Below, in pieces: positions 6,801-22,919 of a stretch of 64,000 bases of DNA; position 1 is the first letter of the stretch; each line of letters starts with the position of its first letter. The notes under the pieces are model-generated. The model had not been told where the DNA came from and did not search any database. It saw only the letters and a program-made list of their open reading frames with translations. The position numbers and the translations under genes were made by a program. This stretch comes from Planctomycetota bacterium (GTDB taxonomy: Bacteria; Planctomycetota; PLA2; JAEUHO01): positions 1,536,001-1,600,000 of the forward strand of contig CBDCTJ010000007.1 of assembly GCA_965222115.1 (NCBI GenBank), given 5' to 3'.

Positions 6801-9800
6801 GCACGCTTCACGAGTTAGAAGGTCGGTATAAGGAGGCCTTTGCCCGCTATCGCCGCGCGATGAATTTGATTCTCTTGCAGCGTCCCTTTGCCGATCGTGC
6901 AGCGCTTGAGAGCTTTGATGATCGCCCCTGGATGCGGTATTGGGGTGGCAAGAACCTCGACGCCTACGACGAACACTACAGCGACACGTTGCGCGCCTAT
7001 CTAGCGACCATGCCGGAGGGCGTCGAGTTACAACCGGTTATCAAGGAGCATCTCGATTGGTTGGAAAAGGACTTTGCGGAGGTCGAGGAAGCGCTTGCGA
7101 AGCGCGCGAAGGCAAAGAAGCCCTCTGATGACGACTCAAAGATCCGCGCAGCGTCGTTTCCTCGCCTCAACAGCCGTATCAAGTTGGTGAGGCGACTCGC
7201 GCTAGCAACCGGCGACCGGGCGCTGGCCGACCGCCTTGACAAACGATTGATTTCGCTTTTTCCGAAAGACCTTTCGCTGGTGAAGACGCTGGTGCGCGGT
7301 CGGCTTGGTTGGGGACTTGTGGCGAGTGCGCTGACCATGATTGAAACTGCGTCGCTTGAGGAAGATGCCGCAAGTGAGTTATTCCTATTGGCCGGCAAAC
7401 AACCAGAAAAACCCTCCGTAGCTGCACTCGCACCTAGTGAAGCCGCGCGTGTGTTGCTGGCGCCGCTCATGCGCGGCGATGAAGACACCGTGCGATCGTT
7501 GTTGCGTCGAGTCGATGCATCGGATGCAAAGAAGGACGACATTCCTCATATCAAACTGCTGGCCAAGGCCGCGGTACACATGAGTGAGCATGAGGTGCTC
7601 CTGTCGCTCGGTCGCCGCTGGCTTCACTTGTCGGCCACATCGGGATCGGGATGGTCGCGCGGCAACGAGATTCGCGACGCGCTCGACTTCTGTTGGCCTC
7701 ACTTTGACGACGTATCACGGAAGAGCCTTGTGCATCCGCTAGGACGCGTTGTCGTGAAGGAGCCGAAAGAGGCGCAGTACGTTTTACCGATCATCGAGGA
7801 CGTGCAGTCCGCGCTCGATCTTTCGTTGTTGACCGAAGAGGAGGCTAAGAAGGTCATCGATGAGTTGGTAGGGGGAAAGCGCCGCACGTCGATGTACTCA
7901 GCCGCCAAGTTCTTTGCCCTGCTGCCCAAGGACGCTCACACGGAGTTTCTGCGCAAGATTTTTGAAAAGGAGCCCATAGAACGACGTGCCCGATCCGTGA
8001 TTTGGGCGCTGGGTCAGCTAGCGGGCAAGTTGTCCGACGACGCCCTGGATTACCTCGAAGCCACCATGCGCGGCAGCATCAAGAAGATGAAGCAACCCAT
8101 GCGTTGGTGGTCCTACGGCCAGACGCTCACATCCAATGAGGCCCAGGCAGAACTCAACTTCCGTTTTCTGAAGGTCATTACCGGTGACGATCCTGAAGAG
8201 CCGCCCCACTTGGCCGCGCTCGCCCTCGCCTATCGAACGATGGGGAAGAAGGAAAAGGCGTGGACGTATGCCGAGAAAGCGTTTTCGACGTTTATGGAGC
8301 GCGGCGCCGATGACTGGACGCTCCGTGCGCCGCTGAGTCGCGTCATCGATGTGTTTGGTGAAGACCACGCAGACGCGTTTCTCAAGGTGATCGACGAACT
8401 CGAGAAGAAGAACGGGCCCAACGAGACCACCACCACGTGGAAGCTCAATCTCCTTTCGCGCGACAAGAAGCCCGAGGAGGTGCTCGCGTTGTTGGAGAAG
8501 GCGCGGAAGAAGGACCCCAAGAACAAGTCGATTCTCAATCGCTTGCAGAATCAGTATCGAGCCATGGGCAGCCCCATGGACGCTATCAAGCTTATTCAGA
8601 AGCGCCTTGAGGATGCGCCTGACGACCAGGCACTCAAGAACCAGCTCTCGACCGCGTGGAGTCGTCTCAAACATCCGATCAATGCCGAAAAGGCCAAACG
8701 TGGTAAGGACAAGAAGAAGGGGCCCTCGAAAGAGGATAAGGAGCGCGCAAAGAAGAAGTTCAAACCCGCCACTGTCAAGCGCATTAAGGAAGCGATTGAG
8801 GGCAAGCAGCTCGACAAGGCGCGGGTGCTCATGCATCAAATGTGGCGCGGCATTTCGCCTGGCACGTCACGCAATCGCTATGGCCCGGTGATTTACTACG
8901 TCAATGGTGTTCCTCAGTTGCATGGGGGCGGCTCGCTCGCGAACGCGCTGTGGCCCGAAGAGAAGAAGAAGGATCGTCGCGTTCGGCGTGGCGGACTTCC
9001 CGATTTCGAGGCCATGCGGAAGGCCGAGGTCGAACGACGCGAAAACAAGAAGGCTGACCGGCGCCTTAGTGCCTATGAAGTGCTCGTTGATCATGAGTTT
9101 GGTCGTAAGGAGATCGAGCGCGAGCTGCGCACGATGTCAGGGTCGGGATTGGAAGGCGCCAGCAATCTGTTGCGCGCCCTCAATCGCAAACGTGAAAAGG
9201 AGATCGGCAAAGAGAAGCTGATCGAAGAACTTCTTGAGCGCGTTACAAGTGGTCACGCGCGCAGCGATACGTTCTATCGGTTGCTCTTGCTTGCCGAGGA
9301 TCAGGCCGAGGCACTCAGCGACAGCGGCGAACGAATCGCCACGAGCCTCATGACCAATGTCGCGCCCGACGATTCGCGCCTCATCCTTCGGTTGGCCAGC
9401 TGTTTGGCGGCGGCAGGCAAGACCGACGCCGTGGAGCGACTGTTGCGTTGGTGCGCCAGACTGGCCACGTCCGGCGGTGGCTTTGATCCCTTCGGCGGTT
9501 ACAGCCCGCGAGCGAGCACCCACGGTGTGATTCATGCGATACGAAAGCACCTAGAGGGTGAGCAGCGCAATCGATCGATCGAGGCGGTACTCGCCATGAG
9601 TGATCCGCGCAAGCCGAAGCTCAAGCGCAGCACCGATCGCAATCCGTGGAGCAACTTCGGTGCCGACGAGTCGTATTCGACGCTGTTGCTCAATACGTGG
9701 AGCGAGGTCATAGGTGCCGAGGCCACGCTCGAGCGATTTGAGTCCATTGTGAAGCGAGCGCTAGATACCGAACGATCGGTGCAGCGAAATGCGGCAGCTA

Positions 9801-10636
9801 CCGTTGCGCGTCTCGCGGCCGCGTCGGGCAACTATGAACTCGCACTGCGTGCATTGGAAGTCGCTGTGTGCGCCTTCCCCGACTGGTCGTTCCCCGATGA
9901 CGTCAAGCGAGACCCTAGCAATCGTTACTTCTATGAGCACCGGGAGCGTATCGCGCACAACTCAAGGGGAATCGGCTCCGATATGCTGTATGCCTTGTTT
10001 GTTCGTCAACCGGATGATGGTGAGGATGCGGTTGACAATGAGGCATCGAAGACCGATGCGGACGAAGAAGACGAAGAGGATCGCAAACCCGAATCAGACG
10101 AGGACGCAGACGACGATGAGGCGATCGACGCTGCTAATGCAAAGATCGTTTGGCTCGTGCATGCGTCAGAGACCATCGATGGGTGGGTAGAAGACAAGCG
10201 GCTGAAGGCGGCGGGTGCGTTTGGCGCTCATTGCGTCATCGCCGTCGAGCTCTTTCGTGCAGGGGCCGAAGAAGAAGCCGCGGCCCTACTTACGAAGGCC
10301 CAGCAACAAGCTCATGAGAATCCGCGTTGGGCGCTGTGGATTGCCGACGCGTATCGCGAAATGGCGCAAGAGGATGAGGCCATCGCGATTGAGCGCCAAC
10401 TGCTAAAGAGTCGAACAATCTACTTGGAGCGCGTGCCCCGAGTCGTGCGTGCCGTCTTGGAACAAGACGGTCCCCAAGCGGCCCTCAAGCTCGGCAACGA
10501 CGTGTCCAGGTTTACGCTGCACCCCGATCTTTTGCGCGTGCTCATCGAGTCTGCGTCTGCGGCAAAGGACGAGAAGGCCGAAGCCACGTGGCGGGCCATG
10601 GCGAAGGAAGCCTGGCCGAAAGACGTCTTCAAATGA
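3884..10636 (+). CDS. Giant (2250 aa) exported TPR-repeat protein
   Basis: N-terminal signal peptide, many TPR-like helical repeats, a Lys-rich and an Asp/Glu-rich linker. ATG directly follows the upstream TAA. Confidence 0.75.
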   Translation: MTMLRDQSRTWIVVLGLFAVAASSPLNVVFAKKDKPTLDDAAKQVVAEALADKEDAENAAHNLDRTFALKAYSSAALLEHLQAVDKEDAKRARAESLLLHLYLRAGKLRDALTIAETQWKDGEAGRKLKLGELQEAAGRNAKALDTYLSLIGEAGDVGWTASLRAALLRLDGVASAGKTADKKPTANSKKPEDNKGADDGDNDNDPLNPVNILTEAVNRSPKSVREARGNRAAMVLALTGKADKARALYHVPKNAEKPVRAMLRMAQWCLHDRAWDEARTWADKAIDVATLKRDRRYAYALLTEAYRGTNDLPKLIERLLASESLSDEAQDLLIELLRETGQPEKALAFFNEEKRASLTPEIQRQFLEMLRDAGRTKDMVARYKDAIHREPERLLWRSGLSRYYLEEGTPAQAKAVWRDLLDVSKTFTPERGPWIQLGAAEEIASQGLHKLALELGERAAKHEATQFPALLFLADVHVRTGKTKLAEAVLDRFDKAAAPKAKERLQLAEVYERLGRKDRAATVLEDLRRARGEDKSEEDLDMRLAVLLSEVDRDADALNLWRHVWKRVKAPARRQYVEDRILTVAAREGELADIAVDLEERLVAGKANERESGLLIRLYTRVGDPVSAAEVLEERVKRQKSDQVKALQEQARIYLTCTDYFNYEEVVRKLIDLDPEGERDYLRQLAMSALERGRPLEARGSLRRLKQLEGGVDGAEFEAGILALGGLNDDAMAAYRKGLAAHPERIEVYLLLAKTMAAAKQKDEAIGMFQSLLTSAEKDDLFTVAVDGLLNMEAPNPVLQWARRRIVERVSNRVHRVFFYQLYGDLSEQLKENHRMVVALSESLPVAGERRGSILREIMDISSQSGFSPFYYGNRREEGGGTKLRYGRRLLLLGDVVPPQVYLDLGRAFLENDEVSVALRTFSLARDLPDFDAFRKQVAETFETAGYLPEALRLYQRALIGRAESISLLKKIGTLHELEGRYKEAFARYRRAMNLILLQRPFADRAALESFDDRPWMRYWGGKNLDAYDEHYSDTLRAYLATMPEGVELQPVIKEHLDWLEKDFAEVEEALAKRAKAKKPSDDDSKIRAASFPRLNSRIKLVRRLALATGDRALADRLDKRLISLFPKDLSLVKTLVRGRLGWGLVASALTMIETASLEEDAASELFLLAGKQPEKPSVAALAPSEAARVLLAPLMRGDEDTVRSLLRRVDASDAKKDDIPHIKLLAKAAVHMSEHEVLLSLGRRWLHLSATSGSGWSRGNEIRDALDFCWPHFDDVSRKSLVHPLGRVVVKEPKEAQYVLPIIEDVQSALDLSLLTEEEAKKVIDELVGGKRRTSMYSAAKFFALLPKDAHTEFLRKIFEKEPIERRARSVIWALGQLAGKLSDDALDYLEATMRGSIKKMKQPMRWWSYGQTLTSNEAQAELNFRFLKVITGDDPEEPPHLAALALAYRTMGKKEKAWTYAEKAFSTFMERGADDWTLRAPLSRVIDVFGEDHADAFLKVIDELEKKNGPNETTTTWKLNLLSRDKKPEEVLALLEKARKKDPKNKSILNRLQNQYRAMGSPMDAIKLIQKRLEDAPDDQALKNQLSTAWSRLKHPINAEKAKRGKDKKKGPSKEDKERAKKKFKPATVKRIKEAIEGKQLDKARVLMHQMWRGISPGTSRNRYGPVIYYVNGVPQLHGGGSLANALWPEEKKKDRRVRRGGLPDFEAMRKAEVERRENKKADRRLSAYEVLVDHEFGRKEIERELRTMSGSGLEGASNLLRALNRKREKEIGKEKLIEELLERVTSGHARSDTFYRLLLLAEDQAEALSDSGERIATSLMTNVAPDDSRLILRLASCLAAAGKTDAVERLLRWCARLATSGGGFDPFGGYSPRASTHGVIHAIRKHLEGEQRNRSIEAVLAMSDPRKPKLKRSTDRNPWSNFGADESYSTLLLNTWSEVIGAEATLERFESIVKRALDTERSVQRNAAATVARLAAASGNYELALRALEVAVCAFPDWSFPDDVKRDPSNRYFYEHRERIAHNSRGIGSDMLYALFVRQPDDGEDAVDNEASKTDADEEDEEDRKPESDEDADDDEAIDAANAKIVWLVHASETIDGWVEDKRLKAAGAFGAHCVIAVELFRAGAEEEAAALLTKAQQQAHENPRWALWIADAYREMAQEDEAIAIERQLLKSRTIYLERVPRVVRAVLEQDGPQAALKLGNDVSRFTLHPDLLRVLIESASAAKDEKAEATWRAMAKEAWPKDVFK

Positions 10637-10712
10637 TGGTTGTCGTCGGATCGTTGCGAGTAGGTTGATCGCTGCGCGGCACGGACTACGCCGCCGCATC
10701 CGGAGGACGTGC

Positions 10713-12137
10713 ATGACTCAGATTCAGCTTCAAAGTTACGGGGCTTCACGCACGGTCACCGGAAGCCGTCATTTGCTTCACTACGGGAAGAAGCGCATAC
10801 TCCTGGACTGCGGGCTGTTTCAAGGGCGTCGCGACGAATCCAACGAACGCAATCGACACATTCCCTTTGCAACCGACGCAGTGGTACTCAGTCACGCACA
10901 TATCGATCACTCGGGCGCCCTGCCGAGTCTTGTCCGCAGTGGTTTTCGCGGAAAGATTCACGCCACGCCGGCCACGCGCGACCTCTGCTACTCCATGTTG
11001 GCTGATTGCGCCAAAATTGCGGCGTCCGAAGCCCGCTATCTCAACAAGCGCCGCAAGAAGAAGCGAGGGGATCCCAAGATTCGGCCCATTTACTCAATGG
11101 CCGACGTGAAACGTACGCTCTCCCAGTTTGTTTCGCACCACTATGAAGAGGAGTTCACGGTGTTGCCCGGCATTCGCGCGCGCTTCCGTGATGCCGGCCA
11201 CATTATTGGTTCTGCAGGTGTTCTTCTCACGGCAAAGGACGCTCCCTCGATCTATTTCACCGGCGACGTTGGGCGTCGCATGTATCCGATTCTGAAAGAC
11301 CCCGAGCCGCTGCCCACGGCCGATGTTGTGATATCAGAGTGCACGTACGGCACCCGAGACCATGCCAATGCGCGCATTTCGTCCGACGAGTTGATCGAAG
11401 AAGTTCGCCGCGTCTTCGCACGGAAGGGCAAACTCCTTATCCCCGCATTTTCCGTAGGTCGCACGCAGAACATTATCTACGCCATTGCGCAGGCCTGGCA
11501 CGAAGCCAAAGCGCCGCGCGTGCCCGTGTACGTCGATTCGCCTTTGGCCGAGAAGGCCACACACGTCTTTGTGGGCCATCCGGATTGTTACGACGAAGAG
11601 ACGGAGTCGTTTCTTTCAGAAGGCGGCAAGCCGTTCTATCCCAAAGGCGTGCGCTACGTTGAATCGCGTGACGAGAGTAAGAGCCTCAACAAGAAGAAGG
11701 GGCCCATGATCATCATTGCGGGCTCGGGCATGTGCGAAGCGGGTCGCATCGTCCATCACTTGAAGCATGGACTTGACGATCCTCGCAATACCGTGTTGCT
11801 CGTAGGCTGGTGCGCGCCGCATACGTTGGGACGGCGCCTCATTGACGGACGCAATCCCGTGCGTGTGTTGGGTCGCATGGTGGATGTGCGGGCTCGTGTC
11901 AACAAGCTCAATGCCTATTCCGCACATGCGGGCCGATCCGATCTGCTTAACTTCTTGGCACCCGCGCGTCGCAAACGCTCTTCGATCTATCTCGTGCATG
12001 GGGAGGAGTCCACATGCATGGCCTTCTCCAAGAATCTGATCGACGAGGGGTTTCGGCGTGTGGTCGTTCCGGAGACCTACGCGCGCTACGACCTTGCGCC
12101 CGCAGGTGCCACCTCGGCGGCGGCTGCAGCGTCTTGA
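10713..12137 (+). CDS. MBL-fold metallo-hydrolase, beta-CASP (RNA-processing) family
   Basis: Motifs LDCG, SHAHIDHSG, AGHIIGS, FTGD, SAHAG, VHGE. GGAGG RBS before ATG 10713. Confidence 0.9.
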   Translation: MTQIQLQSYGASRTVTGSRHLLHYGKKRILLDCGLFQGRRDESNERNRHIPFATDAVVLSHAHIDHSGALPSLVRSGFRGKIHATPATRDLCYSMLADCAKIAASEARYLNKRRKKKRGDPKIRPIYSMADVKRTLSQFVSHHYEEEFTVLPGIRARFRDAGHIIGSAGVLLTAKDAPSIYFTGDVGRRMYPILKDPEPLPTADVVISECTYGTRDHANARISSDELIEEVRRVFARKGKLLIPAFSVGRTQNIIYAIAQAWHEAKAPRVPVYVDSPLAEKATHVFVGHPDCYDEETESFLSEGGKPFYPKGVRYVESRDESKSLNKKKGPMIIIAGSGMCEAGRIVHHLKHGLDDPRNTVLLVGWCAPHTLGRRLIDGRNPVRVLGRMVDVRARVNKLNAYSAHAGRSDLLNFLAPARRKRSSIYLVHGEESTCMAFSKNLIDEGFRRVVVPETYARYDLAPAGATSAAAAAS

Positions 12138-12151
12138 GAATCGGTCGCATG

Positions 12152-12185
12152 AATCCACTCGCCGCTGAAGCAAGCGCAGTGGATT
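12152..12185 (+). terminator. Hairpin downstream of the beta-CASP gene, possible intrinsic terminator
   Basis: Inverted repeat AATCCACT...AGTGGATT. The U-tract is short. Confidence 0.4.
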
Positions 12186-12215
12186 TGAAACGGCGGGATA
12201 TCCACAGCGTCTAAT

Positions 12216-12791
12216 ATGGGCCCGGCCGATCGGGTGACGGTCGCATGGAGCCCCGCGATTTCAGATCCATCCACCAAATATCGCGCACTGTCGAGTCGAT
12301 GGGCCGGCCTTATTGTGCGCGCCGTGTGGTGGACCATGCTGCTGCTTCATGTCGTGGTGCTCGCCTTCGTATCGGTTGCCGTCACGCGCGACGGCGTGTC
12401 GATGCAATCTGTCGGGGATGTCGTCGCGCTCCTAGGCGCGATCGCCTTCTTCTACTTCAAGGCGCGTGATGTCGCGTGGTTACGTATTGGCGGGCGAACG
12501 AAGGGGCTGGTCGTGTGGGCGTTGCTTGCGGCGCTTGTTCATCCCCCGGCATTTCCCGCCGACGGATCATGGGCGGAGGAGATCCCGCAGTCGTTGGTCG
12601 CCGTTTGTACGGTGGTCGCCGGCGTGGCTGTTGTGACCCGCGTCATGTCGAGTCGGTTACGCATGTCCGCGCCAAACAAGCCCTCGTGGCGACGGTTGTG
12701 GCAATCGGATCCCGCGCCCATCCTGGTGCGCACACACATGGCTTGGGATGCGCGCGGACCACCTCTGTACGCGTTACCGGTAATTTCCTGA
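12216..12791 (+). CDS. 4-TM membrane protein with C-terminal RGPP motif; candidate regulatory leader/arrest peptide
   Basis: Four hydrophobic segments, His45 and His109 in TM1/TM3, RGPP at codons 180-183 (12753-12764). True start is uncertain and may be GTG 12234. Confidence 0.65.
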   Translation: MGPADRVTVAWSPAISDPSTKYRALSSRWAGLIVRAVWWTMLLLHVVVLAFVSVAVTRDGVSMQSVGDVVALLGAIAFFYFKARDVAWLRIGGRTKGLVVWALLAALVHPPAFPADGSWAEEIPQSLVAVCTVVAGVAVVTRVMSSRLRMSAPNKPSWRRLWQSDPAPILVRTHMAWDARGPPLYALPVIS

Positions 12792-12903
12792 CGCGGATAT
12801 CGCTTCTTCGCGCGTTCCTCTTCTGCTGCCGGTAACCCGTGCGCCGCCCCTTCAACCGTGGGCGCCGTGTCTCGATCACGTGGTCCTCGAGAGCAACCAT
12901 CCC

Positions 12904-15180
12904 ATGTCTCATGAACAGTCTGGAGGTATAGCGCCCCCGCGCACGCGCGGCGTTTTGCTTCTCAATCTCGGCTCGCCCAGCGGATGCGACCCGCGTTCGG
13001 TGCGGCGCTACTTGGCCGAGTTTCTTGCCGATCCCGAAGTGATCAAATTGCCGCGCGGTATGCGGTGGTTTGGGAAACCTCTTGCACGCATGATCGCGCG
13101 CTCTCGCGCCAAGCAATCGGCCCACGCCTATGCATCCGTATGGACCGACGATGGTTCTCCCTTGCTCGTGATTTCTGACGCGCAGGGCAGGGCGCTTGCC
13201 CATGTGTTGGGACGTGCATTCGATGTGCGGGTGGCCATGCGTTACGGTCATCCTTCCATTGATGATGTTGTTGCGTCGTTCGTCGAGGATGACATTCACG
13301 ACGTCACAGCGGTTCCGATGTATCCTCAGTTTGCCGGCGCGACCACAGGCACCGCGTTGGCCGCGCTGTATCGCGCCTTTGAACGTCACGCGCGAGACAC
13401 GGAACTTGTCGTTCGCAATGCGTGGTACGACGATGCGGGCTACATTCAGGCCCAAGTCGCGGTACTTAACGAGGCAATCGCGAAGCACGGCCTCACGCCC
13501 GACAACACCACGCTTGTATTTAGCGCCCACTCTCTGCCCGTGGCCTACATCAAGGCCGGCGATCCGTACCAAAAGCACATCGTGGAAACCGTTCACCTTG
13601 TGTCAAAGGCTCTTGGGTGGCCAGAAGAGCGCATCACGCTCGCCTACCAATCCAAGCTTGGTCCGGTGGAGTGGCTCGCGCCGCAAACCGCTGAAGTCAT
13701 CGAATCACTTGCTAAGAATGGCACGCCCAACGTTTTCGTGTGCCCCATCAGTTTCACGGCGGACTGTTTGGAGTCGCTTGAAGAGCTCGATATCCGTGGG
13801 CGCGACGTAGTCGAGGCGCACGGCAGCAACTTCCATCTTTGTCCCGCGCTCAATGATCACCCTGCGTTCATTGAAGCGCTGGCAGGAATTGTCCGACGAG
13901 GGACGCGGCCTATCGCGTTGGAATCCAAATGTTCGGATGATGCTCCCGCTCAGCTCGATGCCGACTGGATGAGCCGGTTGGTGGTCACGGGCCTATCGCG
14001 CGAGCCTGGCGCACTCGACGCATTGCGTGATGCGGGCGTCCACATTACTAACCATGTTGATGATGCCACGTTTGCCGCGAGCAAGCGCACCCACCAAGAG
14101 GTGCGCGGACTCTGCTCGGCGCTAGGGGAGCGTGGTGTCGAGCAGAGTGTGGTTGTTTCTACGTGCGCGCGTGTGGAAGCCTATTCGCTCGCCCCGGCCG
14201 CGAGGGAAACCGAACAAAGGAGAACGATCACACGCTTACAATCAACATTGCTAACGGACGTCCATGACGCCTCCCACCCTCAAGTGCACGTTGGCCATGA
14301 GGCCTACCGACACGCGGTGTTGACCGCGGCGGGGCTATTGAGCTCTTTGCCCGGCGATAACGACGTCAGGCTTCAGCTTTGCAGTGCGGCGCGCACGGCG
14401 GAAGATGTTGCCCACGGCGCAACAGCTATCGGCATGGTCATGACACGGGCAACGGAAGCCGCCCAAGCCCTGTCGGAGGCAACCACGTGGCGTGATTTCC
14501 GCGTGGGGTTTGCCGATGTCGCCTTGGATGGAATTTCTCGATCGGCTTCCGTGGACTGGACGCAGATGCGATCCGTTGTTGTGTTGGGTGGGTCCACGAC
14601 GGCGCGAAGCACAATTCACACGTTGCGAAGGCGTCATGGCGTGCGTCCTTCTCAGCTAACGGGCATCTACCGCACGCGCAGCCGTGGAAAACAGCTCAAG
14701 GCGCTACGCCAAGCGCTGCGCGGCGCAACACCGTTGCGTGTCGATCGCTACGATGACGCGCGTGTACTCGATGCGCTGGCCCATGCCGACGTAATCGTGT
14801 TCGCGCACGATGCTCGTGAACCGATCTGGTCCGCCGAACAGGCCATGACACGCAGCGCTCAGACCAAAGTGATCATTGATTTCAACTCGTTCCCATCCAC
14901 ACGAGGGTTTGAAGACGACGAATCAACCGCATTGTGGCGACTCTGCGACATTGAGGCCGTTGTGCGTGACTATGCGGCTTCACTTGCGGGTTGTGAGCGA
15001 TTCCGCGTTGCCGTCCGCGAGGCGTTGGCGTGGCTTGAAGAACACATTGGTGCCACGCGCGAGGGTCGATCCATGGACGCCCGCCCGAGAAACGACCGCG
15101 TGACATGTACGCGGAGCGGTTGCGGTTGCAAGCGCGCCTTCGTGCCCGAAGTTCGCACGCGTGTGGAGACGGTGTCGTGA
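12904..15180 (+). CDS. hemH: Ferrochelatase (HemH) fused to a divergent glutamyl-tRNA reductase (HemA-like) domain
   Basis: N-half: LLNLGSP, MRYGHP, PMYPQF, SAHSLP, YQSKLGPVEWLAP, DCLESLEE. C-half from about 13969: VVSTCARVEAY and EAYRH..TAAGLLS..GDNDVRLQL align to HemA STCNRxE / GLDS..GExQIxGQ. Confidence 0.88.
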   Translation: MSHEQSGGIAPPRTRGVLLLNLGSPSGCDPRSVRRYLAEFLADPEVIKLPRGMRWFGKPLARMIARSRAKQSAHAYASVWTDDGSPLLVISDAQGRALAHVLGRAFDVRVAMRYGHPSIDDVVASFVEDDIHDVTAVPMYPQFAGATTGTALAALYRAFERHARDTELVVRNAWYDDAGYIQAQVAVLNEAIAKHGLTPDNTTLVFSAHSLPVAYIKAGDPYQKHIVETVHLVSKALGWPEERITLAYQSKLGPVEWLAPQTAEVIESLAKNGTPNVFVCPISFTADCLESLEELDIRGRDVVEAHGSNFHLCPALNDHPAFIEALAGIVRRGTRPIALESKCSDDAPAQLDADWMSRLVVTGLSREPGALDALRDAGVHITNHVDDATFAASKRTHQEVRGLCSALGERGVEQSVVVSTCARVEAYSLAPAARETEQRRTITRLQSTLLTDVHDASHPQVHVGHEAYRHAVLTAAGLLSSLPGDNDVRLQLCSAARTAEDVAHGATAIGMVMTRATEAAQALSEATTWRDFRVGFADVALDGISRSASVDWTQMRSVVVLGGSTTARSTIHTLRRRHGVRPSQLTGIYRTRSRGKQLKALRQALRGATPLRVDRYDDARVLDALAHADVIVFAHDAREPIWSAEQAMTRSAQTKVIIDFNSFPSTRGFEDDESTALWRLCDIEAVVRDYAASLAGCERFRVAVREALAWLEEHIGATREGRSMDARPRNDRVTCTRSGCGCKRAFVPEVRTRVETVS

Positions 15181-16598
15181 GCTCTCTAGAGGTTGCCGTT
15201 GATCGCGAGGTGTTTCAGCGATACGTCGGTCTTTCACTTCCGCGGCACGTCTCCTACCCCATGCCCACATGGTGGTCGGCCTTCGACTCACGTGACGCAA
15301 AGCGTCTGATTGACCGTCGCACGGAACGCACGACGTTCCACGATTTGTCTCTGTATATCCACATTCCTTACTGCCAAGCGCTCTGCAAGTTCTGTGCGTG
15401 CTCGCGCGTGATTCAACGCAAGGAGGGGCGCGGTGCGGCGGAGCGAACGCAGGCTTATGTGGATGCGTTGGTGCGGGAGATTCGATCCGCGGGCCGCAGC
15501 AACAACGCCGCGCAGGTTAGGCAGATTCACTACGGCGGCGGCACGCCAACCTATTTGTCGATCGAACAACTCCGTGCGATCCACGATGCCATCAACGATA
15601 CGTTCGACATCGCCTCCGATGCGGAAGTCGCGATGGAGATCGATCCCCGGGTGACGAGTGACGAGCAGCTGGATTTGCTTGCCGACCGTGGCTTCAATCG
15701 ACTGTCCCTGGGCGTGCAGGACTTTGACCGGACGGTGCAAGAGCATGTCCATCGCGTGCAGCCCTACGAGCAAGTGAAGCAGATCGTGGATGCCTGTCGT
15801 GTGCGTGGGATCGCGTCCATCAATTTCGACCTGATCTATGGACTGCCGTACCAAACGATGGACACCGTGTCCGATACGCTCGCGCGTGTGATTGAACTTT
15901 CGCCCGATCGCGTGGCCTACTATCACTACGCACAGATTCCCGACACAATTGCTACCCAAGTTGCCATCCATCATCACGCCATGCCCGATTCCGACGTGAA
16001 GTTGGACATGTTCACGAAGGGCGTGCGTGTGTTCACGGAAGCCGGGTATCGATTCATTGGACTCGATCACTTTGCGCGAGACCACGAGGGGCTTGCCAAG
16101 GCTGAGGACGACGGCGGGTTGCATCGAAATTTTCAGGGCATGACCACCGGAGCGGCGCTCGATCTGGTGGCTTTCGGTGCCAGCGCAATCAGTGAGTGGC
16201 ACGACCTCGGCTATCTACAAAATGTCCGGGATCCCGTTGCCTACGTGAGCGCGATCAACGCAAACGGAACCGCCGTCCATCGTGGAATGGCGCTTTCGGA
16301 TGACGATCGCATCCGCAAGGCAGTGATTCACCAGATTTATTGCCATGCGCGAATAGTGCCCGCTCACATTGAATCCCAGTTTGACATTTCATTTGGAGCC
16401 TATTTCGAACGTGAACTCGACCAGTTGAATGACTTGGCATCAGACGGCATCGTGATTCCCGAGGCCGATGGCTCGTTCTCCATTCCGTATCCTCTGGGAC
16501 GGGTATTGATGCGCAATGTTGGTGCGATTTTCGACGCCTACTTGCCCGACGAGGCCTATCGCGTCGGATGTCGAAGCACCTACTCGACGAATGCGTGA
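15177..16598 (+). CDS. hemN: Oxygen-independent coproporphyrinogen III oxidase (radical SAM)
   Basis: PRHVSYP, YIHIPYCQALCKFCAC (CxxxCxxC), GGGTP, RNFQG. GTGA overlap with the upstream stop. Confidence 0.93.
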   Translation: MSSLEVAVDREVFQRYVGLSLPRHVSYPMPTWWSAFDSRDAKRLIDRRTERTTFHDLSLYIHIPYCQALCKFCACSRVIQRKEGRGAAERTQAYVDALVREIRSAGRSNNAAQVRQIHYGGGTPTYLSIEQLRAIHDAINDTFDIASDAEVAMEIDPRVTSDEQLDLLADRGFNRLSLGVQDFDRTVQEHVHRVQPYEQVKQIVDACRVRGIASINFDLIYGLPYQTMDTVSDTLARVIELSPDRVAYYHYAQIPDTIATQVAIHHHAMPDSDVKLDMFTKGVRVFTEAGYRFIGLDHFARDHEGLAKAEDDGGLHRNFQGMTTGAALDLVAFGASAISEWHDLGYLQNVRDPVAYVSAINANGTAVHRGMALSDDDRIRKAVIHQIYCHARIVPAHIESQFDISFGAYFERELDQLNDLASDGIVIPEADGSFSIPYPLGRVLMRNVGAIFDAYLPDEAYRVGCRSTYSTNA

Positions 16599-16602
16599 AG
16601 CC

Positions 16603-17670
16603 ATGCATCAACGCCTGCCCACAAACGATCTTGTGTTGCGTGCCGCGCGCGGCGAACCGACGCCGCGCACGCCTGTGTGGTTCATGCGTCAGGCGGGCCG
16701 CTTCGATCCTGCCTATCGCGCGCTCAAGGAACGCGAGCAGCGGCCGCTTGAGGCGATGTTCGCCGACCCCGACATAGCCACCGAGGTCACATTGCTTCCG
16801 CAACGCTATGGCGTAGATGCCCTAATTCTTTTTCAAGACATTCTCACAATCTGCGGGCCGATGGGGGCGCGCTTTGTGTTTCGGCCGGGTCCCGTTCTGG
16901 CGCATCCGATTCGAACCGCCCGTGATGTTCAGGGATTGCGTTCCATGAGCCCCGAAGACGACATGCCATATGTGTCGGCCTCGATTCGGCACGTTCTGAC
17001 TTCCGTGGATGGTGCGTTGCCGCTGCTTGGGTTTGCCGGTGCACCGCTCACCGTCGCCGCCTTCATGGTTGCGGGCGAGAGTCCAGGTGCGGACCTTGCC
17101 GACCTCCGGACGATGATGCGCGAGTCACCCGAGGCACTGCACGACCTTATGCGTCATCTCGCTGCGCACACAAGCCGCTATCTGGACATGAAAGTTCGCG
17201 CGGGCGTTCACGCCGTTCAACTCTTCGAATCCATGGCCGATCGTTTGTCTGTAGACGAATACAACACGTGGGCTCTTCCCTATCAGCAACAAGTGTTTAC
17301 GTCGATGCATGAAGCGGCCACGCGAATCATCTTCGCCAAGGGTTTTAGCGACGTTCGTGCGCTGCTTGCCAGTGGCGCCGAGTGTTTGAGTGTGTCCGGT
17401 GACGTAGACCTGCGCGTGGCTCGCGCGCGACCTGACTGTGAGACTGTGGGCATCCAAGGCAACCTTAGCAACGTCTTGCTTCGCGATGGAACGCCCGACG
17501 AAGTGGAGCGTGCCACGCGTGCGTGCATTGATGCGGGGAGGCACAGGGGCCATATCCTCAATCTCGATCACGGGCTCTTTCCTACCACGCCACCCGAGAA
17601 CGTGTCGCGCGCGATTCAAACAGCAAAAACATATGTTGTCTCTGCGCCGACAGGCCCACGCACAGCATGA
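16603..17670 (+). CDS. hemE: Uroporphyrinogen decarboxylase
   Basis: PVWFMRQAGR, LFQDIL, GFAGAP, IQGNL, HILNLDHG. Alternative ATG at 16591. Confidence 0.95.
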   Translation: MHQRLPTNDLVLRAARGEPTPRTPVWFMRQAGRFDPAYRALKEREQRPLEAMFADPDIATEVTLLPQRYGVDALILFQDILTICGPMGARFVFRPGPVLAHPIRTARDVQGLRSMSPEDDMPYVSASIRHVLTSVDGALPLLGFAGAPLTVAAFMVAGESPGADLADLRTMMRESPEALHDLMRHLAAHTSRYLDMKVRAGVHAVQLFESMADRLSVDEYNTWALPYQQQVFTSMHEAATRIIFAKGFSDVRALLASGAECLSVSGDVDLRVARARPDCETVGIQGNLSNVLLRDGTPDEVERATRACIDAGRHRGHILNLDHGLFPTTPPENVSRAIQTAKTYVVSAPTGPRTA

Positions 17671-19046
17671 GTGCCATTGAAACGAACGTGGCCATCGTAG
17701 GTGGTGGGATTTCAGGGCTTGTTTGCGCGTGGACGCTGGCGCGCGCGGGCACGTCGGTCGCGCTTCTTGAGGCGAGCAACGAGCTCGGTGGCTGCATGCG
17801 TACGTCCCATGGTGACGGCGTGTTGTTTGAACACGGTCCCTTCAACGTCTTGGCGAGAGCGCCTGCGTTTGTCAACTTACTACAAGCGTGTGAATCGGAC
17901 GTGGGTGTGGTGTCGCTGGCCGAGGCAAGTCGCAAACGCTATCTCGCTAAGCGTGGGGCGCTTCATGCGATTCCCATGTCGCCGTGGGGTTGGCTCAAGT
18001 CGCCGTTGCTATCACCCATGGGGCGGCTGCGCCTCTTGCGAGGTGCGCTTGTTAGTCGACGCGCGCCCAAGAGAGAAGAGACGATCCATGAGGCCGCTAC
18101 GCGACGGTTGGGACGCGATGCCGCGGAGGTACTGGTGTCATCGGCCGTGGCCGGTGTGTTTGGTGGCGACAGCAAGCAGACATCACTTGCTGCCGCGTTT
18201 CCTCACGTAAGCGACGTCGATCGGCAAACGCGGAGTCCATTGATGGCGATGGTGCGGCGCGCCAAACAGCGAAAGCGAAGCGATCAAACCCGCCCCGCAA
18301 TGATTAGCTTCAAGAACGGCTTGCAGTCACTGGCGGACTGGCTCGGCGCAAACCTCAGCGATGGCGTATACCGCGAACACTTGGTCTCCTCGATTGTGCC
18401 TCGCGACAACGGCTGGCACGTTCACGCCAAGCATCACGGTCGCGAAGTGACTGTCGAAGCAAACAAGGTCGTTCTCACCACGCCCGCACGTGCCACGGGG
18501 TTGCTCGTGCGTGAGTTGGCGCCGAACGCCTCCGAAGAGTTGATCTCGCTCCCCACGTCCACCATGGCTGTAGTCAACTTGCTCTACGCGCGAAACGACG
18601 TCGCTCATCCGTTGGATGGCTACGGATTTCTCGTCCCCAACACAGAGAGCCAGCCGAAGTGTTTGGGCGCGCTGTTCGCCGACGCGGCGTTTCCACACCA
18701 CGCGCCGGAACATCAGTGCATTGTGCGTGTGTTCTTGGGCGGTCATCGCGAACCCGACATCTTGGCGCGCACCGACAAGGAACTTCGTGCGCAGGCGCGC
18801 GAAAGTGTTGAACCGCTGCTGGGCATCTCGGCTCAGCCTCGTTTTGCGCCCGTCATGCGCTGGCCTCGCGCCATTCCGCAGTACGCGATTGGTCATGCCG
18901 AGCGCATGGCCACAGTCGAGCGCGACGTGGCTCGTTTACCGGGATTGCATCTCGTGGGCAACTACCTGCGTGGGGTGTCAATCAATGACTGCGTGCGTGA
19001 GGCCGACGCACTGGCGAGGCGCATCCTTGCGGGGGAAGCATCGTGA
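17667..19046 (+). CDS. hemG: FAD-dependent protoporphyrinogen oxidase (HemY/HemG type)
   Basis: VGGGISGL FAD motif, FEHGP, GYGFLVP, RWPRAIPQY, GNYLRGVSINDC. Confidence 0.92.
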   Translation: MSAIETNVAIVGGGISGLVCAWTLARAGTSVALLEASNELGGCMRTSHGDGVLFEHGPFNVLARAPAFVNLLQACESDVGVVSLAEASRKRYLAKRGALHAIPMSPWGWLKSPLLSPMGRLRLLRGALVSRRAPKREETIHEAATRRLGRDAAEVLVSSAVAGVFGGDSKQTSLAAAFPHVSDVDRQTRSPLMAMVRRAKQRKRSDQTRPAMISFKNGLQSLADWLGANLSDGVYREHLVSSIVPRDNGWHVHAKHHGREVTVEANKVVLTTPARATGLLVRELAPNASEELISLPTSTMAVVNLLYARNDVAHPLDGYGFLVPNTESQPKCLGALFADAAFPHHAPEHQCIVRVFLGGHREPDILARTDKELRAQARESVEPLLGISAQPRFAPVMRWPRAIPQYAIGHAERMATVERDVARLPGLHLVGNYLRGVSINDCVREADALARRILAGEAS

Positions 19047-20077
19047 CAATCAGCGAATCCTTGGGCTCCCCGCGAGGGATACCGGAGCGTCCACGGCGCT
19101 TGCGTCGCACGCCCGTCATCGCCAATCTTGTTCGCGAGATACGTGTACACCCAAGTCAACTTGTGCTGCCCGTATTCGTTGTGGAAGGGCGCGAAATAGT
19201 TGATCCCATCGAGGCCATGCCGGGATGCGCGCGGCGTTCCATCGACGCACTGATGTCGCAATGCAAGGAAGCCTACGCATTAGGCATTCGTTCCTTTGCG
19301 CTGTTTCCCAAGATCGACGACGCATTGAAGAATCCCCAAGGATCGGAAGCGCTCAACGAAGACGGCCTTGTTTGTCGGGCCGTCCGGGCCCTGCACGACG
19401 CGCTCCCAGACGCCTGCGTATTTACCGATGTTGCACTTGACCCCTTCTCGTCCCACGGGCACGATGGACTCGTGGCCGACGATGGTCGCGTACTCAACGA
19501 TGAAACCGTTGACATCTTGGCTCGCATGGCCGTTGTACACGCGAAGGCGGGCGCCGACTTTGTGGCGCCGTCCGACATGATGGACGGACGCGTGGGGGCG
19601 ATTCGACGCGCATTGGATGGCGACGGGTATTACGACGTGGGCATTCTCTCGTATTGCGCCAAGTACGCGTCGGCGTTCTATGGACCGTTTCGCGAAGCGC
19701 TCGATTCCGCACCCGTCGATCTTGCGCACGTACCGAAAGACAAGACGACCTATCAGATGGATCCAGCCAATGCGCGTGAAGCGTTGCGCGAAGCAAGGCT
19801 CGACGAGCAAGAGGGCGCAGACCTATTGATGGTGAAACCTGCACTGCCCTACCTCGATATCGTGCATCGACTGTCCATCGCTTCATCGCTGCCTATTGCG
19901 GCGTACCACGTGAGTGGTGAGTACGCGATGGTGCGTGCCGCCGGGGAGCGCGGCTGGCTCGATGCCGACGCCTGCATGCGCGAGTCGTTGATTGCTATCG
20001 CGCGGGCGGGCGCGCGCGTGATCTTTACTTACGCGGCCGTGGACTACGCGCGCTGGTGGCGTTCCACAATGGCTTGA
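19043..20077 (+). CDS. hemB: Porphobilinogen synthase, Asp-rich (non-Zn) type
   Basis: RPRRLR, DVALDPFSSHGHDG, APSDMMDGRV, SAFYGPFR, MVKP, YHVSGEY. Confidence 0.96.
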   Translation: MTISESLGSPRGIPERPRRLRRTPVIANLVREIRVHPSQLVLPVFVVEGREIVDPIEAMPGCARRSIDALMSQCKEAYALGIRSFALFPKIDDALKNPQGSEALNEDGLVCRAVRALHDALPDACVFTDVALDPFSSHGHDGLVADDGRVLNDETVDILARMAVVHAKAGADFVAPSDMMDGRVGAIRRALDGDGYYDVGILSYCAKYASAFYGPFREALDSAPVDLAHVPKDKTTYQMDPANAREALREARLDEQEGADLLMVKPALPYLDIVHRLSIASSLPIAAYHVSGEYAMVRAAGERGWLDADACMRESLIAIARAGARVIFTYAAVDYARWWRSTMA

Positions 20078-20712
20078 GCGAGCGCCTCAAGCGACGGCGT
20101 GGGCGCCTCCACCCAGAGTTCATGACCCGCGGACTGGACAGCCCGACTTGTTGTGGGGCCAAGGCTGGCAAAGGGTCGTGTTTCGTTCTTCAGCGCGGAG
20201 ACGGCCGATGGACTCGTAACGGCAATCACCGTCGCAGATGATACGCGGTCGAAGTCAAACGCGCGCCGCGTTGTTTCATAGACGATGGGTGCCGAGAACG
20301 ATGAAAACCCGTGCGACGTAGGAACGTCTGCGAGATTCGAGCGCGCATACACGACGCGACCGGTGGGGGACTTCCTTCGTAGCGACGTAAAGAGTGCGTC
20401 AACGCCGGGACCCGGACCCATCAGCGCGCACCGTGCGCCGCGCGCTTCGAGAGCATTCTTTGTAGCTGGACCCACGGCGGCGAGTTTCGGTGTGTGCAAC
20501 ATGTGTTCCGGCAGTGCGTCAACCGCGAATGCACTCGTAAGGACGAGCCAGTCGTTTTCACAAAGCGATTCAAAATCAACGGGAAGCTCGTCCACCACGC
20601 GACGTTCGAGTACGGGTTCCAGGAGAACGTCTACGCCAGCATTGCGTAATGCACGTGAAAGGGGGCCACCCTCGGATTCATCTCGCGTGACCCATACGCG
20701 CAAGCCGTCCAC
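20044..20712 (-). CDS. hemD: Uroporphyrinogen-III synthase
   Basis: VWVTR, LVLTSAFAV, AVGPAT, VYET, TSPSAV, LGPTT. Lies downstream of hemC. Confidence 0.88.
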   Translation of the reverse strand: MDGLRVWVTRDESEGGPLSRALRNAGVDVLLEPVLERRVVDELPVDFESLCENDWLVLTSAFAVDALPEHMLHTPKLAAVGPATKNALEARGARCALMGPGPGVDALFTSLRRKSPTGRVVYARSNLADVPTSHGFSSFSAPIVYETTRRAFDFDRVSSATVIAVTSPSAVSALKNETRPFASLGPTTSRAVQSAGHELWVEAPTPSLEALAQAIVERHQRA

Positions 20713-20715
20713 TGA

Positions 20716-21612
20716 CTAGTCCTCACTCAGGGTATCGGCGTCGATCAGCATGCGCGCCAACTCGCGACCGACGCGTTCCGGGTCACGGCCAACGTGGGTG
20801 CCCGAGCCCACAAGCGTGCCCTCTGTCGTAAACAACTGTCCGTGCAACGAAATGACGTCACTGGCAATCGACGCCAACGCACCAATGGGCGTTTGGCATC
20901 CCGCTTCCGCCTCATGCATGAATGCGCGTTCCGCGGTGACGGCCTTGCGTACCGTTGCATCGTCCAGATCCGAGACGAGCACATGCGCGGCGCCATCGGC
21001 GCGTGTTTGCACCGCAAGCGCTCCTTGCGCGGGTGCGGGCACGAACTGAAATGCTGGTAGTACCAGTGAACATTCCGGTTCGATGCCGAGGCGGCGTACG
21101 CCGGCCGCGGCTAATACGATGGCGTCTAAGTTGCCTTCGTGAAGTCGTTTGATGCGGGTGGGCACGTTGCCACGAATAGGGACGACCGTATGCGCCGCTT
21201 CCAGCAAGAGCTGTGCGCGGCGACGGGCACTGCCGGTGCCAATCGTCATGGGTGACTTTAAGCCATCGAGCGTGACAGGTCGTTTGGCGATGAGCAGGTC
21301 TTCTACCGCCGCGCGCGAGGGTACTGCTGCGATTGCGAGTCCCTCGGGAGACGTAGTCGGAAGATCCTTCATGCTATGAACGGCGACGTCGATCGTTCCT
21401 TCGAGTAGCGCATGTTCCAATACGCTCACGAATGCGCCGCGTTCCCAGCCCGCTTCGGACGGTACGCTGCCTTGCGAGGCATCGCCCACCGTCTTGACGA
21501 CCACGGTTTCGATTTTGAGCGTCGGATGACTGCGCGCAATGGCGGCCGCAACCCAGGCGGTTTGCGTTCGTGCCAAAGCACTGCCTCGTGTTCCCAGTCG
21601 AAGCGTTGTCAC
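20716..21612 (-). CDS. hemC: Hydroxymethylbilane synthase (porphobilinogen deaminase)
   Basis: LGTRGSALA, AVHSMKDLP, GTGSARR, RGNVPTR, PAPAQGAL, GCQTPIG. Confidence 0.96.
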   Translation of the reverse strand: MTTLRLGTRGSALARTQTAWVAAAIARSHPTLKIETVVVKTVGDASQGSVPSEAGWERGAFVSVLEHALLEGTIDVAVHSMKDLPTTSPEGLAIAAVPSRAAVEDLLIAKRPVTLDGLKSPMTIGTGSARRRAQLLLEAAHTVVPIRGNVPTRIKRLHEGNLDAIVLAAAGVRRLGIEPECSLVLPAFQFVPAPAQGALAVQTRADGAAHVLVSDLDDATVRKAVTAERAFMHEAEAGCQTPIGALASIASDVISLHGQLFTTEGTLVGSGTHVGRDPERVGRELARMLIDADTLSED

Positions 21613-22919
21613 TCGGCTATCTCTTGCAGCGACTCGCGGGCGGCACTCACGATTTGATCGATGTCGGTTTCGGTGTGGGCCGAGGAAACGAAGAATGCCT
21701 CGTAGCTACTTGGCGGAAGCCATACGCCACGCGCCAACATGGCGTGGAAGAATGCTGCGTAGCGCTTGTGATCACACGCGGTGGCATCGACATAGTCGCG
21801 CACCGGTTTCTTGGAGAACGACAGGCCGAGCATGCCGCCAAGCGCATGGGTATGGAGTGGAATCTGTAAGTCTGCGCCGGCATTCGCAATGCCATCGGCG
21901 AGACGTTGCGAAGTGGCGTGCAACTCGTCATAGAAGCGCGGGGCTTGACACAGTTTGAGCGTGGCAAGGCCACTCGCCATGCCAAGTGGATTGCCGCTCA
22001 ACGTTCCCGCTTGATACATAGGCCCGAGCGGGCTCACGAGTTCCATGATCTCGCGCCGTGCGCCATACGCTGCAACGGGCATGCCGCCGCCCATGACTTT
22101 ACCTAAGCACGTAATGTCGGGCTTGATGTTGGCGTGTACTTGGTAGCCGCCCCACGCGACGCGAAAGCCCGTCATCACCTCGTCGAACACAAGCATGGCG
22201 CCGTACTTGGTGCAGAGTTCGCGAAGTCCTTCCAGGTAGCCGACCACGGGCGCCACAAAGCCCATGTTGCCCGCTACGGGCTCAACCATAATGCCCGCGA
22301 TGTCGTCACCCTGTTCACGGAACAGTGCCTCCACCGCTTCGAGATCATTGAACGGCACAAGTAGCGTCCCCGATGCAACCGGCGCCGGAACGCCCGCGGA
22401 GTTTGGCACGCCTGTCGTTGCTGCACCCGATCCCGCCGCCACGAGCAAACCATCGGCATGACCGTGGTAACAACCGATCATCTTGACGATTTTGGTGCGC
22501 GCGGTGGCCGCTCGCGCAAGTCGCATAGCACTCATGGTTGCCTCGGTGCCGCTGTTTACGAACCGGAGCATGTCCATACTAGGCAGTGCATCGAGGATCA
22601 ACTCTGCGAGTTCGGTCTCAAGTGCGCAGCATGCGCCAAAGCTCAGGCCGTTCGCAGCCGCTTCCTGTACGGCATCGACGACTGCGGGATGGGCATGGCC
22701 CACGATGGCGGGTCCCCAACTCCCAACCAGATCGAGGTAGCGATTGCCATCCACATCGATGATCGTGGCGCCGCTTGCGGACTTTACGAAGGCTGGCGTA
22801 CCTCCCACGGAGCCGAAGGCGCGCACGGGACTGTTGACGCCACCAACCAGCACCCGCTGCGCGCGCTCAAACATGATGGTGGATCGGGATCGTGGTGTGG
22901 AACTGTCAGACGCTTGCAT
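21609..22919 (-). CDS. hemL: Glutamate-1-semialdehyde 2,1-aminomutase
   Basis: GGVNSPVRAF, VNSGTEATMSA, FDEVMTGFR, LGKVMGGG, YQAGTLSGNP. Confidence 0.97.
   Translation of the reverse strand: MQASDSSTPRSRSTIMFERAQRVLVGGVNSPVRAFGSVGGTPAFVKSASGATIIDVDGNRYLDLVGSWGPAIVGHAHPAVVDAVQEAAANGLSFGACCALETELAELILDALPSMDMLRFVNSGTEATMSAMRLARAATARTKIVKMIGCYHGHADGLLVAAGSGAATTGVPNSAGVPAPVASGTLLVPFNDLEAVEALFREQGDDIAGIMVEPVAGNMGFVAPVVGYLEGLRELCTKYGAMLVFDEVMTGFRVAWGGYQVHANIKPDITCLGKVMGGGMPVAAYGARREIMELVSPLGPMYQAGTLSGNPLGMASGLATLKLCQAPRFYDELHATSQRLADGIANAGADLQIPLHTHALGGMLGLSFSKKPVRDYVDATACDHKRYAAFFHAMLARGVWLPPSSYEAFFVSSAHTETDIDQIVSAARESLQEIAE

Follow-up and report, generated by a model that had tools for sequence, protein, structure and literature searches.

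A candidate haem-sensing ribosome-arrest leader of the RAPP/RGPP class at the head of a planctomycete haem operon

Introduction

In translational arrest of the RAPP type, R-A-P is held on the P-site tRNA with Pro-tRNA in the A site (PMC10951233; toeprint of CruR, PMC12992588). Fujiwara et al. (EMBO J, December 2025, PMC12992588) describe RAPP, and especially RGPP, as arresting ribosomes in many sequence contexts, with RGPP the strongest. In the same account these motifs resist EF-P and are depleted from proteomes, and they are enriched near the C-termini of small secretory or membrane proteins encoded upstream of functionally diverse genes (PMC12992588). All seven C-terminal RAPP/RGPP proteins tested from S. 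lividans stalled in a motif-dependent manner, both in vitro and in vivo; four of the seven have four transmembrane (TM) segments, and one carries conserved His residues predicted to bind metal (PMC12992588). Here we analyse a stretch of 64,000 nucleotides from a Planctomycetota bacterium (assembly GCA_965222115.1, contig CBDCTJ010000007.1, positions 1,536,001 to 1,600,000; hereafter the window), in which a gene at 12216-12791, the leader gene, encodes a predicted four-TM protein with a C-terminal RGPP and heads a haem-synthesis operon. The protein has the features by which members of the RAPP/RGPP arrest-peptide class are recognised at the level of sequence, namely the motif, a length below 300 amino acids (aa) with TM segments, and a linked co-directional gene. 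We assign it to this class, itself described in 2025, as a member with a conserved four-TM, bis-His domain that heads haem operons.

CruR of Bordetella pertussis (Bp2923, DUF2946) stalls at RAPP (PMC12992588); the ribosome stalled on it denies Rho access to a C-rich stretch until the nascent chain binds copper, which frees the ribosome (PMC9426467). Like the leader, CruR is a small exported or membrane-targeted protein heading an operon, and its stalling keeps the downstream genes on (PMC9426467), as we propose below for the haem operon. The two differ in that four TM segments and two His in the leader take the place of the signal peptide and CXXC motif of CruR, and in that the target of CruR is a TonB-dependent receptor rather than a biosynthetic operon. 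Pfam searches gave no DUF2946 (CruR/CutF family) match for the leader or for the 51 members of its family described below, in which no Cys is conserved. For the haem leader, a role of Rho is a proposal. TnaC, the tryptophanase leader of E. coli, likewise shows small-molecule-dependent arrest near its stop codon with Rho-dependent termination in the spacer as the read-out; there, however, the ligand is bound in the ribosome tunnel and causes the arrest, and TnaC has neither a membrane domain nor RAPP.

CutF of Rhodobacter capsulatus, also of the DUF2946 family, resembles the leader as a nascent-chain sensor with a proline-rich stalling motif at its C-terminus that controls the next gene, and differs from the proposed haem leader in that copper induces the stall, which then melts a stem-loop at the ribosome-binding site (RBS), as reported in bioRxiv 10.1101/2025.02.05.636593. 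A stem-loop of this kind is not consistently predicted in the haem-leader loci. In architecture the leader is also like SLIV_18480 (metal-related), SLIV_27375 and SLIV_33595/33605 of S. lividans, which are four-TM proteins of fewer than 300 aa with C-terminal RAPP or RGPP; they too have conserved TM residues (His in SLIV_18480), and their arrest has been shown in vitro and in vivo (PMC12992588). Compared by description only, their downstream genes differ from that of the leader, SLIV_33595/33605 preceding extracytoplasmic function (ECF) sigma factors (PMC12992588). MifM, SecM and VemP share with the leader a localisation signal followed by C-terminal arrest, and they control the next gene through force-dependent release (PMC7897499, PMC10987492, PMC12992588); unlike the leader, they report on the activity of Sec or YidC, are encoded ahead of sec or yidC genes and are poorly conserved in their N-terminal parts.

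The words heme, haem, ferrochelatase, hemH and porphyrin do not occur in the main text of PMC12992588, although its supplementary gene lists might name ferrochelatase. Full-text literature searches found no haem-linked arrest peptide, the co-occurrences of arrest peptides and heme, in 14 papers, being incidental, with one to three mentions of heme each. The first-pass annotation of this DNA, made from the sequence alone, knew of no described system of this kind; this stands for a haem-linked member in the literature searched, but not for the RAPP/RGPP class of membrane and secretory proteins as such, which had already been described (PMC12992588).

Results

The leader protein and its C-terminal motif

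The leader gene, the residues of interest that it encodes and the spacer behind it are located in the window as follows.

12216..12791, forward strand: leader gene; ATG-started open reading frame (ORF), 191 aa; unnamed family; C-terminal RGPP
12348..12350, forward strand: His45 codon CAT, within TM helix 1 (modelled helix 19-59); family-invariant
12540..12542, forward strand: His109 codon CAT, end of TM helix 3 (modelled helix 94-108); family-invariant
12753..12764, forward strand: R-G-P-P codons CGC GGA CCA CCT, residues 180-183; predicted arrest site
12789..12791, forward strand: leader stop TGA, 8 codons (LYALPVIS) past RGPP
12792..12903, forward strand: leader-hemH spacer, untranslated, 112 nucleotides (nt), C-rich (44 C, 29 G); candidate read-out site (Rho loading or RNA structure)

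The GC content of the leader by codon position (0.646/0.536/0.714) follows the same pattern as that of the adjacent hem genes, so that the frame looks coding. In an AlphaFold2 model built on the family alignment (predicted local distance difference test, pLDDT, 74), helices span residues 19-59, 63-83, 94-108 and 125-150, with His45 inside helix 1 and His109 immediately past helix 3, and the C-terminal tail is modelled at low confidence. Counted along the sequence with these helices, the distance to the cytoplasmic end of the helix is about 10 residues for His45 in TM1 and about 12 for His109 in TM3. The basic N-terminus, the basic loop between TM2 and TM3 and the basic tail suggest an N-in/C-in topology. 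By a crude hydropathy scan the last TM segment ends at residue 145, which is 35 residues ahead of the Arg of RGPP. The translation and the modelled helices thus bear out the four-TM ORF of the first-pass annotation, with His45 in TM1 and His109 at the end of TM3, and the sequence likewise has RGPP where it was placed, eight codons before the stop.

A RAPP or RGPP within 12 residues of the C-terminus occurs in only 4 of the 7416 coding-like ORFs of the genome (a crude ORF set). This rarity, together with conservation of the motif across the family, argues that the RGPP of the leader is not a chance feature. The three other such crude ORFs lie outside the window, at C1 290326-290580 (+), C7 1685825-1686061 (-) and C7 1857894-1858973 (+).

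No Pfam or NCBIfam model matched the leader protein. Foldseek comparison of its model with the PDB gave no match at E<=0.001, and the family profile gave none against PDB sequences at E<=1. Searches of Pfam, NCBIfam, the PDB and Foldseek found no similarity of sequence or fold to haem-binding TM families (HemJ/CopD-like, cytochrome b561 and others). In the ESM Atlas, the clusters nearest to the leader comprise unnamed hypothetical proteins from Planctomycetota and Acidobacteriota; a lead to DUF6412 from the same source (0.81) was dropped when a search of the genome and of controls gave no match.

A conserved family with invariant His residues

The only homologue returned by a word-index search was P0002, which is 51% identical to the leader, keeps both His residues and ends in ...AWDARGPP plus one residue. 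A two-sequence profile run against 1.84 billion cluster representatives then retrieved 51 proteins of 149-241 aa at E<=0.001. A word-index search with the 51-sequence alignment gave four proteins, for which the sole name was 'hypothetical protein', and no Pfam family is common to the 51 members. In that alignment H45, F79 and H109 are invariant, and they stay invariant at 62 of 62 aligned sequences (61 distinct) after addition of 11 proteins from genomic loci. At least 90% conservation is reached by W38, L72, K82, L89, R90, R180, P182 and P183, and no Cys, Met, Asp or Glu is conserved. Strong conservation is confined to a Trp/His face on TM1, an FF-x-LK...D-x-x-x-LR signature at the junction of TM2 and the following loop, the His at the end of TM3, and R-(A/G)-P-P near the stop. 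Most of the 62 sequences have four hydrophobic segments by hydropathy, and we regard the leader family, as judged from these alignments, as one of conserved four-TM proteins of 150-240 aa.

An R-x-P-P lies within the last 16 residues (1-12 before the stop) in 46 of the 51 representatives, as RAPP in 24, RGPP in 17, RPPP in 4 and RSPP in 1; this holds even though for most of the 51 matches the aligned stretch stopped short of the C-terminus. Among 57 motif-bearing sequences, the motif is followed by a single residue in 25 and by two to four residues in 27, and the eight residues that follow it in the window leader are the second longest such extension. The third codon positions of the motif vary between loci while the amino acids stay constant, and therefore selection acts on the peptide. 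From the last hydrophobic segment to the Arg, crude hydropathy gives a median of 51 residues (interquartile range, IQR, 45-56), with 35 in the window and 32 in P0002.

The first-pass annotation had proposed looking for homologues and for conservation of both His, of R(G/A)PP and of its spacing. A family was found, both His are present throughout the aligned sequences, 41 of the 51 representatives carry RAPP or RGPP, and the linker to the motif, put at about 40 residues for the window, measures 35 there, so that the original figure was a fair one.

Genomic contexts and distribution

Twelve genomic contexts of the leader family were read, covering only about six of the 51 representatives. The position upstream of hem genes that the first-pass annotation saw in the window recurs: in 9 of the 12 the next gene downstream on the same strand encodes ferrochelatase (the window, L037, L038, L039, L040, L047, L051, L052 and L053), and in 8 of these 9 loci a domain resembling glutamyl-tRNA reductase (GlutR) is fused to it, the contig of L039 ending inside the gene. 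In L037 (genome G295) a leader ending RGPPALD is followed by the fusion, hemN, hemE and hemY. L038 is a Planctomycetota metagenome-assembled genome (MAG) contig, and L039 and L040 are metagenome contigs. The four remaining loci of the nine are from genomes G423, G419, G427 and G551. The profile of a narrower, 11-sequence alignment picked up one locus in genome contigs and two in metagenome contigs, and that of the two-sequence alignment picked up no related locus in either.

The upstream neighbours of five loci are all different (a beta-CASP RNase, purD, a tetratricopeptide repeat (TPR) protein, an aminotransferase and a sigma-54 response regulator), from which it follows that the conserved unit is the leader plus the hem operon.

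In a 201-genome sample of the order to which G295 belongs, the fusion-type GlutR domain occurs in five genomes, and the leader in all five of them. A sixth GlutR-like match in this sample, in G554, is a stand-alone gene with no fusion, and a weak leader match in G525 falls in an unrelated region; both were left out of the counts. Of 401 genomes sampled across the phylum, two yielded the leader, and these two are also the ones with a strong match to the fusion. A homologue search found no leader in 39 other genomes of the window's own order, of which 37 carry a plain hemH that is 32-44% identical over the ferrochelatase part only. From these surveys the leader-fusion cassette looks patchily distributed.

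The leader in genomes lacking detectable hemH, hemB and hemE

In the contexts from G433, G594 and G449 (3 of the 12), the leader keeps both His and an RGPP or RAPP, and is followed by a secreted protein without a Pfam family. The genes for these proteins lie as follows.

L056 2114-3295 (G433): secreted-protein gene after the leader
L057 1647-2717 (G594): secreted-protein gene after the leader
L055 11736-11011, minus strand (G449): secreted-protein gene after the leader

Ferrochelatase, ALAD and URO-D were undetected in these three genomes (99%, 93% and 96% complete, respectively). In two hem-linked control genomes ALAD and URO-D were found, and ferrochelatase stands directly downstream of the leader. 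Since the leader is kept in three genomes without ferrochelatase, ALAD and URO-D, it appears to track haem supply and not one enzyme, and a predicted sensor of the supply of haem (or of iron or porphyrin) fits its retention after loss of the pathway better than a subunit of a biosynthetic enzyme does. The sample of haem-less genomes is small, two of the three being of one family. Two of the three secreted proteins are 52% identical to each other and both end in dockerin/EF-hand-like repeats; the third shows faint, collinear similarity only, together with a sub-threshold match to a DNRLRE domain. We consider these secreted proteins to be candidate haem- or iron-acquisition proteins.

The haem operon downstream of the leader

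The genes following the spacer were identified by their Pfam and NCBIfam matches, which confirm that the leader ORF comes first in a unit of haem genes.

12904..15180, forward strand: ferrochelatase fused to a divergent glutamyl-tRNA-reductase-like domain (PF00762 2e-98, PF05201 2.2e-12, TIGR00109)
15105..16598, forward strand: hemN, oxygen-independent coproporphyrinogen oxidase (TIGR00538 8.5e-135)
16516..17670, forward strand: hemE, uroporphyrinogen decarboxylase (PF01208 3.8e-88)
17667..19046, forward strand: protoporphyrinogen oxidase, HemY type (TIGR00562 3.9e-72)
19043..20077, forward strand: hemB (ALAD; PF00490 2.2e-130)
20044..22919, reverse strand: hemD, hemC and hemL, convergent (PF02602, PF01379/PF03900, PF00202)

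With the convergent hemD, hemC and hemL, the haem pathway is complete in one cluster. The fusion gene probably starts at ATG 12904, a start that aligns with those of three other loci, the listed ORF running from GTG 12880. Its product, besides which no ferrochelatase or GlutR-like sequence was found in the genome of the window (90% complete), probably joins the last enzyme of haem synthesis with, as far as the GlutR-like part goes, the first. This part consists of GlutR_N and a Rossmann-type part, and the fusion proteins measure 758-814 aa (window 12904-15180, L037 10580-13012, L038 5692-8079 and L040 4619-7063). A survey of 482 ferrochelatase sequences names, as reported there, only a HemH-ChdC fusion as a length outlier (PMC8529089). 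The HemH fusions of L051 (from ~2126) and, at the corresponding reverse-complement positions, of L052 and L053 have an N-terminal Cys-rich extension, C-x-n-C-x-G-C-S-G-x-n-C-V-C-H, which is absent from the window protein and may be a metal or cluster site.

The first 76 nt of the hemN ORF as listed (15105-15180) are shared with the end of the fusion gene; since TIGR00538 matches only from residue 32 on, hemN probably starts at a later position. On the other side of the leader, a gene of the beta-CASP/metallo-beta-lactamase (MBL) RNase type (Pfam match within 10449-12137) ends 78 nt before it, and two genes upstream of it a 2250-aa ORF with helical-repeat-like sequence occupies 3884-10636.

The spacer and its possible read-out

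In the other hem-linked loci the leader stop is separated from the hemH start by about 95-160 nt, and the 3' end of the leader together with the spacer shows a mild excess of C over G in most of the five loci compared. The genome encodes EF-P and, outside the window, two Rho-like genes, C7 1483712-1484824 (-) and C7 1714042-1715142 (+), with 522 and 475 bits against TIGR00767, of which only the former exceeds the curated cut-off of that model. A CruR-like read-out through Rho is, by analogy, possible for the haem leader and weakly supported.

In the minimum-free-energy (MFE) fold of the window region (z -2.2), the RGPP codons (GGACCAC) pair with GUGGUCC located 18-24 nt upstream of the probable hemH ATG. 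A 7-bp stall-site helix of this kind was reached in 357 of 2000 shuffles and is unremarkable, and pairing comparable to it is missing in seven of the eight other loci. In L037 the stall site and the start form a 10-bp helix that was reached by 12 of 2000 shuffles. A stall-dependent RBS switch is not claimed, as unmasking of the start was inconsistent over the five loci and the pairing ordinary against shuffles.

Two further patterns were seen in the spacers of related loci and not in the window. A hairpin-like ACGGC-N3-GCCGT followed by GCGAT is present in L039 (~2915-2935), L040 (~4595-4615) and L038 (~5595-5615), and in the same three loci AACGGAA(A/C)G is conserved immediately before the hemH ATG.

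Discussion

The sequence evidence makes it quite likely that the product of the leader gene is an arrest-type regulatory leader of some kind. The best explanation overall, which we think moderately probable, is that of a RAPP-class, CruR-like arrest leader that reads haem status through its nascent bis-His bundle and controls the genes behind it. That haem is indeed the ligand and the model right as written is a more tentative proposal. Of similar standing, possible and offered with reserve, is the wider picture of a nascent-chain haem sensor that shuts off the operon of the first and last enzymes and that has been rewired, in relatives without the pathway, to a haem-scavenging secreted protein.

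The model would run as follows. The ribosome would stall at 12759-12764, the P site carrying R-G-P and the A site Pro-tRNA; the CruR toeprint (PMC12992588), taken as a guide, would assign Pro182 to the P site and Pro183 to the A site. At this point a linker of 35-50 residues would fill the tunnel, and the four TM helices would already be out and free to assemble in the membrane. Two membrane-embedded His on TM helices are the usual bis-His arrangement of haem b, and His45 and His109, predicted to lie at similar membrane depth, would bind a ligand, most likely haem b. Folding or packing driven by the ligand would exert a pull on the nascent chain, which would end the arrest. With ligand scarce, the ribosome would remain stalled and the downstream genes on; with ligand replete, release of the arrest would turn them off. 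Shut-off would most likely follow the CruR way, with Rho gaining access to the C-rich spacer once the ribosome has left it, and less likely involve a change of RNA structure at the hemH start. In this way the end product would feed back on the genome's sole hemH and hemA-like gene. Such negative feedback, with the operon off when ligand is replete, is the only logic that suits both the biosynthetic and the putative scavenging contexts.

Several observations weigh against this explanation. The 12 contexts come mostly from one phylum and several are related, and 5 of the 51 representatives have no motif in the last 16 residues. The C>G excess is just about 1-2 standard deviations (SD) over background, and the stall site and the hemH start are notably complementary in only one of nine loci. 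A search of sequencing runs listed four DNA runs with this sequence, from one study, and no RNA run. In partition-function calculations, imposing a stalled ribosome shifts the mean unpaired probability at the hemH start by -0.09 to +0.22 in five loci, and neither an intrinsic terminator nor a sigma-70 promoter turned up in a scan of 11800-13100. Conservation of the TM domain far exceeds that seen in the classical monitoring substrates, so that the protein may have its own function in addition to, or instead of, regulation. Finally, the two His are also compatible with a metal ion.

This last point leads to the strongest of the alternatives, an identical arrest-leader mechanism in which the His pair senses Fe(II) or another metal, a porphyrin intermediate, or redox or oxygen state in place of haem. 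The ligand-sensing RAPP leaders described so far sense copper through Cys or His, ferrochelatase requires Fe(II), metals are bound by His side chains, and the secreted proteins of the haem-less genomes could equally serve iron uptake. Yet a metal site normally needs three or four ligands, and the family offers just two invariant residues with ligand chemistry, both within the membrane span, with none of Cys, Met, Asp or Glu conserved; an operon that is off when iron is replete would also be odd logic for haem synthesis. On this balance we find a non-haem ligand unlikely.

Somewhat less likely again is a stable membrane protein that binds haem or another cofactor (a small cytochrome b, for instance, or a haem acceptor or chaperone serving ferrochelatase) and whose R-x-P-P only slows translation to let the protein fold, or serves another purpose, without regulating downstream genes. 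The strongly conserved TM core with invariant His, Phe and Trp, which is unusual in leader peptides, would be well explained in this way, as would the operon linkage, partners in operons often being partners in function, and no conserved RNA switch was found by constrained folding at five loci or by complementarity at nine. However, 52 of the 57 sequences with the motif have it within 1-4 residues of the stop, a position that suits signalling to the spacer and not folding, and RAPP and RGPP are reported to be among the most avoided tetrapeptides and refractory to EF-P (PMC12992588). The spacer of 95-160 nt is moreover retained across the hem-linked loci, and the leader is kept in the same upstream position in genomes without hemH, hemB and hemE.

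The first-pass annotation had also allowed for sensing of membrane insertion, which would make the leader a Sec/YidC monitoring substrate of the MifM/SecM kind that reports insertion capacity. The architecture is the same, with TM segments followed by a C-terminal arrest motif and a linker of a length at which insertion force could act, but the downstream gene is a Sec or YidC component in none of the 12 contexts and the invariant His residues would have no role; because no Sec or YidC gene follows, we judge this very improbable. A spurious ORF with a chance RGPP in GC-rich DNA could account for the missing Pfam/NCBIfam match and for the missing homologue in the 39 other same-order genomes, but this reading, of negligible probability, is refuted by the family of 51 (one homologue at 51% identity and 49 others, more distant, that share the invariant residues) and by residues invariant at 62 of 62, and is opposed by coding-type codon-position GC and conserved synteny.

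If the favoured explanation of a haem-responsive arrest leader is correct, the ligands sensed by RAPP arrest peptides would include a tetrapyrrole cofactor besides copper, and their targets a biosynthetic operon. To our knowledge, feedback on bacterial haem synthesis is known mainly through HemA stability and transcription factors. The leader would also bear on a question left open by Fujiwara et al. (2025), namely where the pulling force comes from in those arrest peptides whose task is other than monitoring Sec or YidC. With a single small gene, a pair of His and four residues at the C-terminus, it would make a compact and genetically simple module, reusable as a haem-responsive switch. In the apparently haem-auxotrophic relatives, which are probably planctomycetes, the uncharacterised secreted protein encoded behind the leader would become a candidate haem-acquisition factor.

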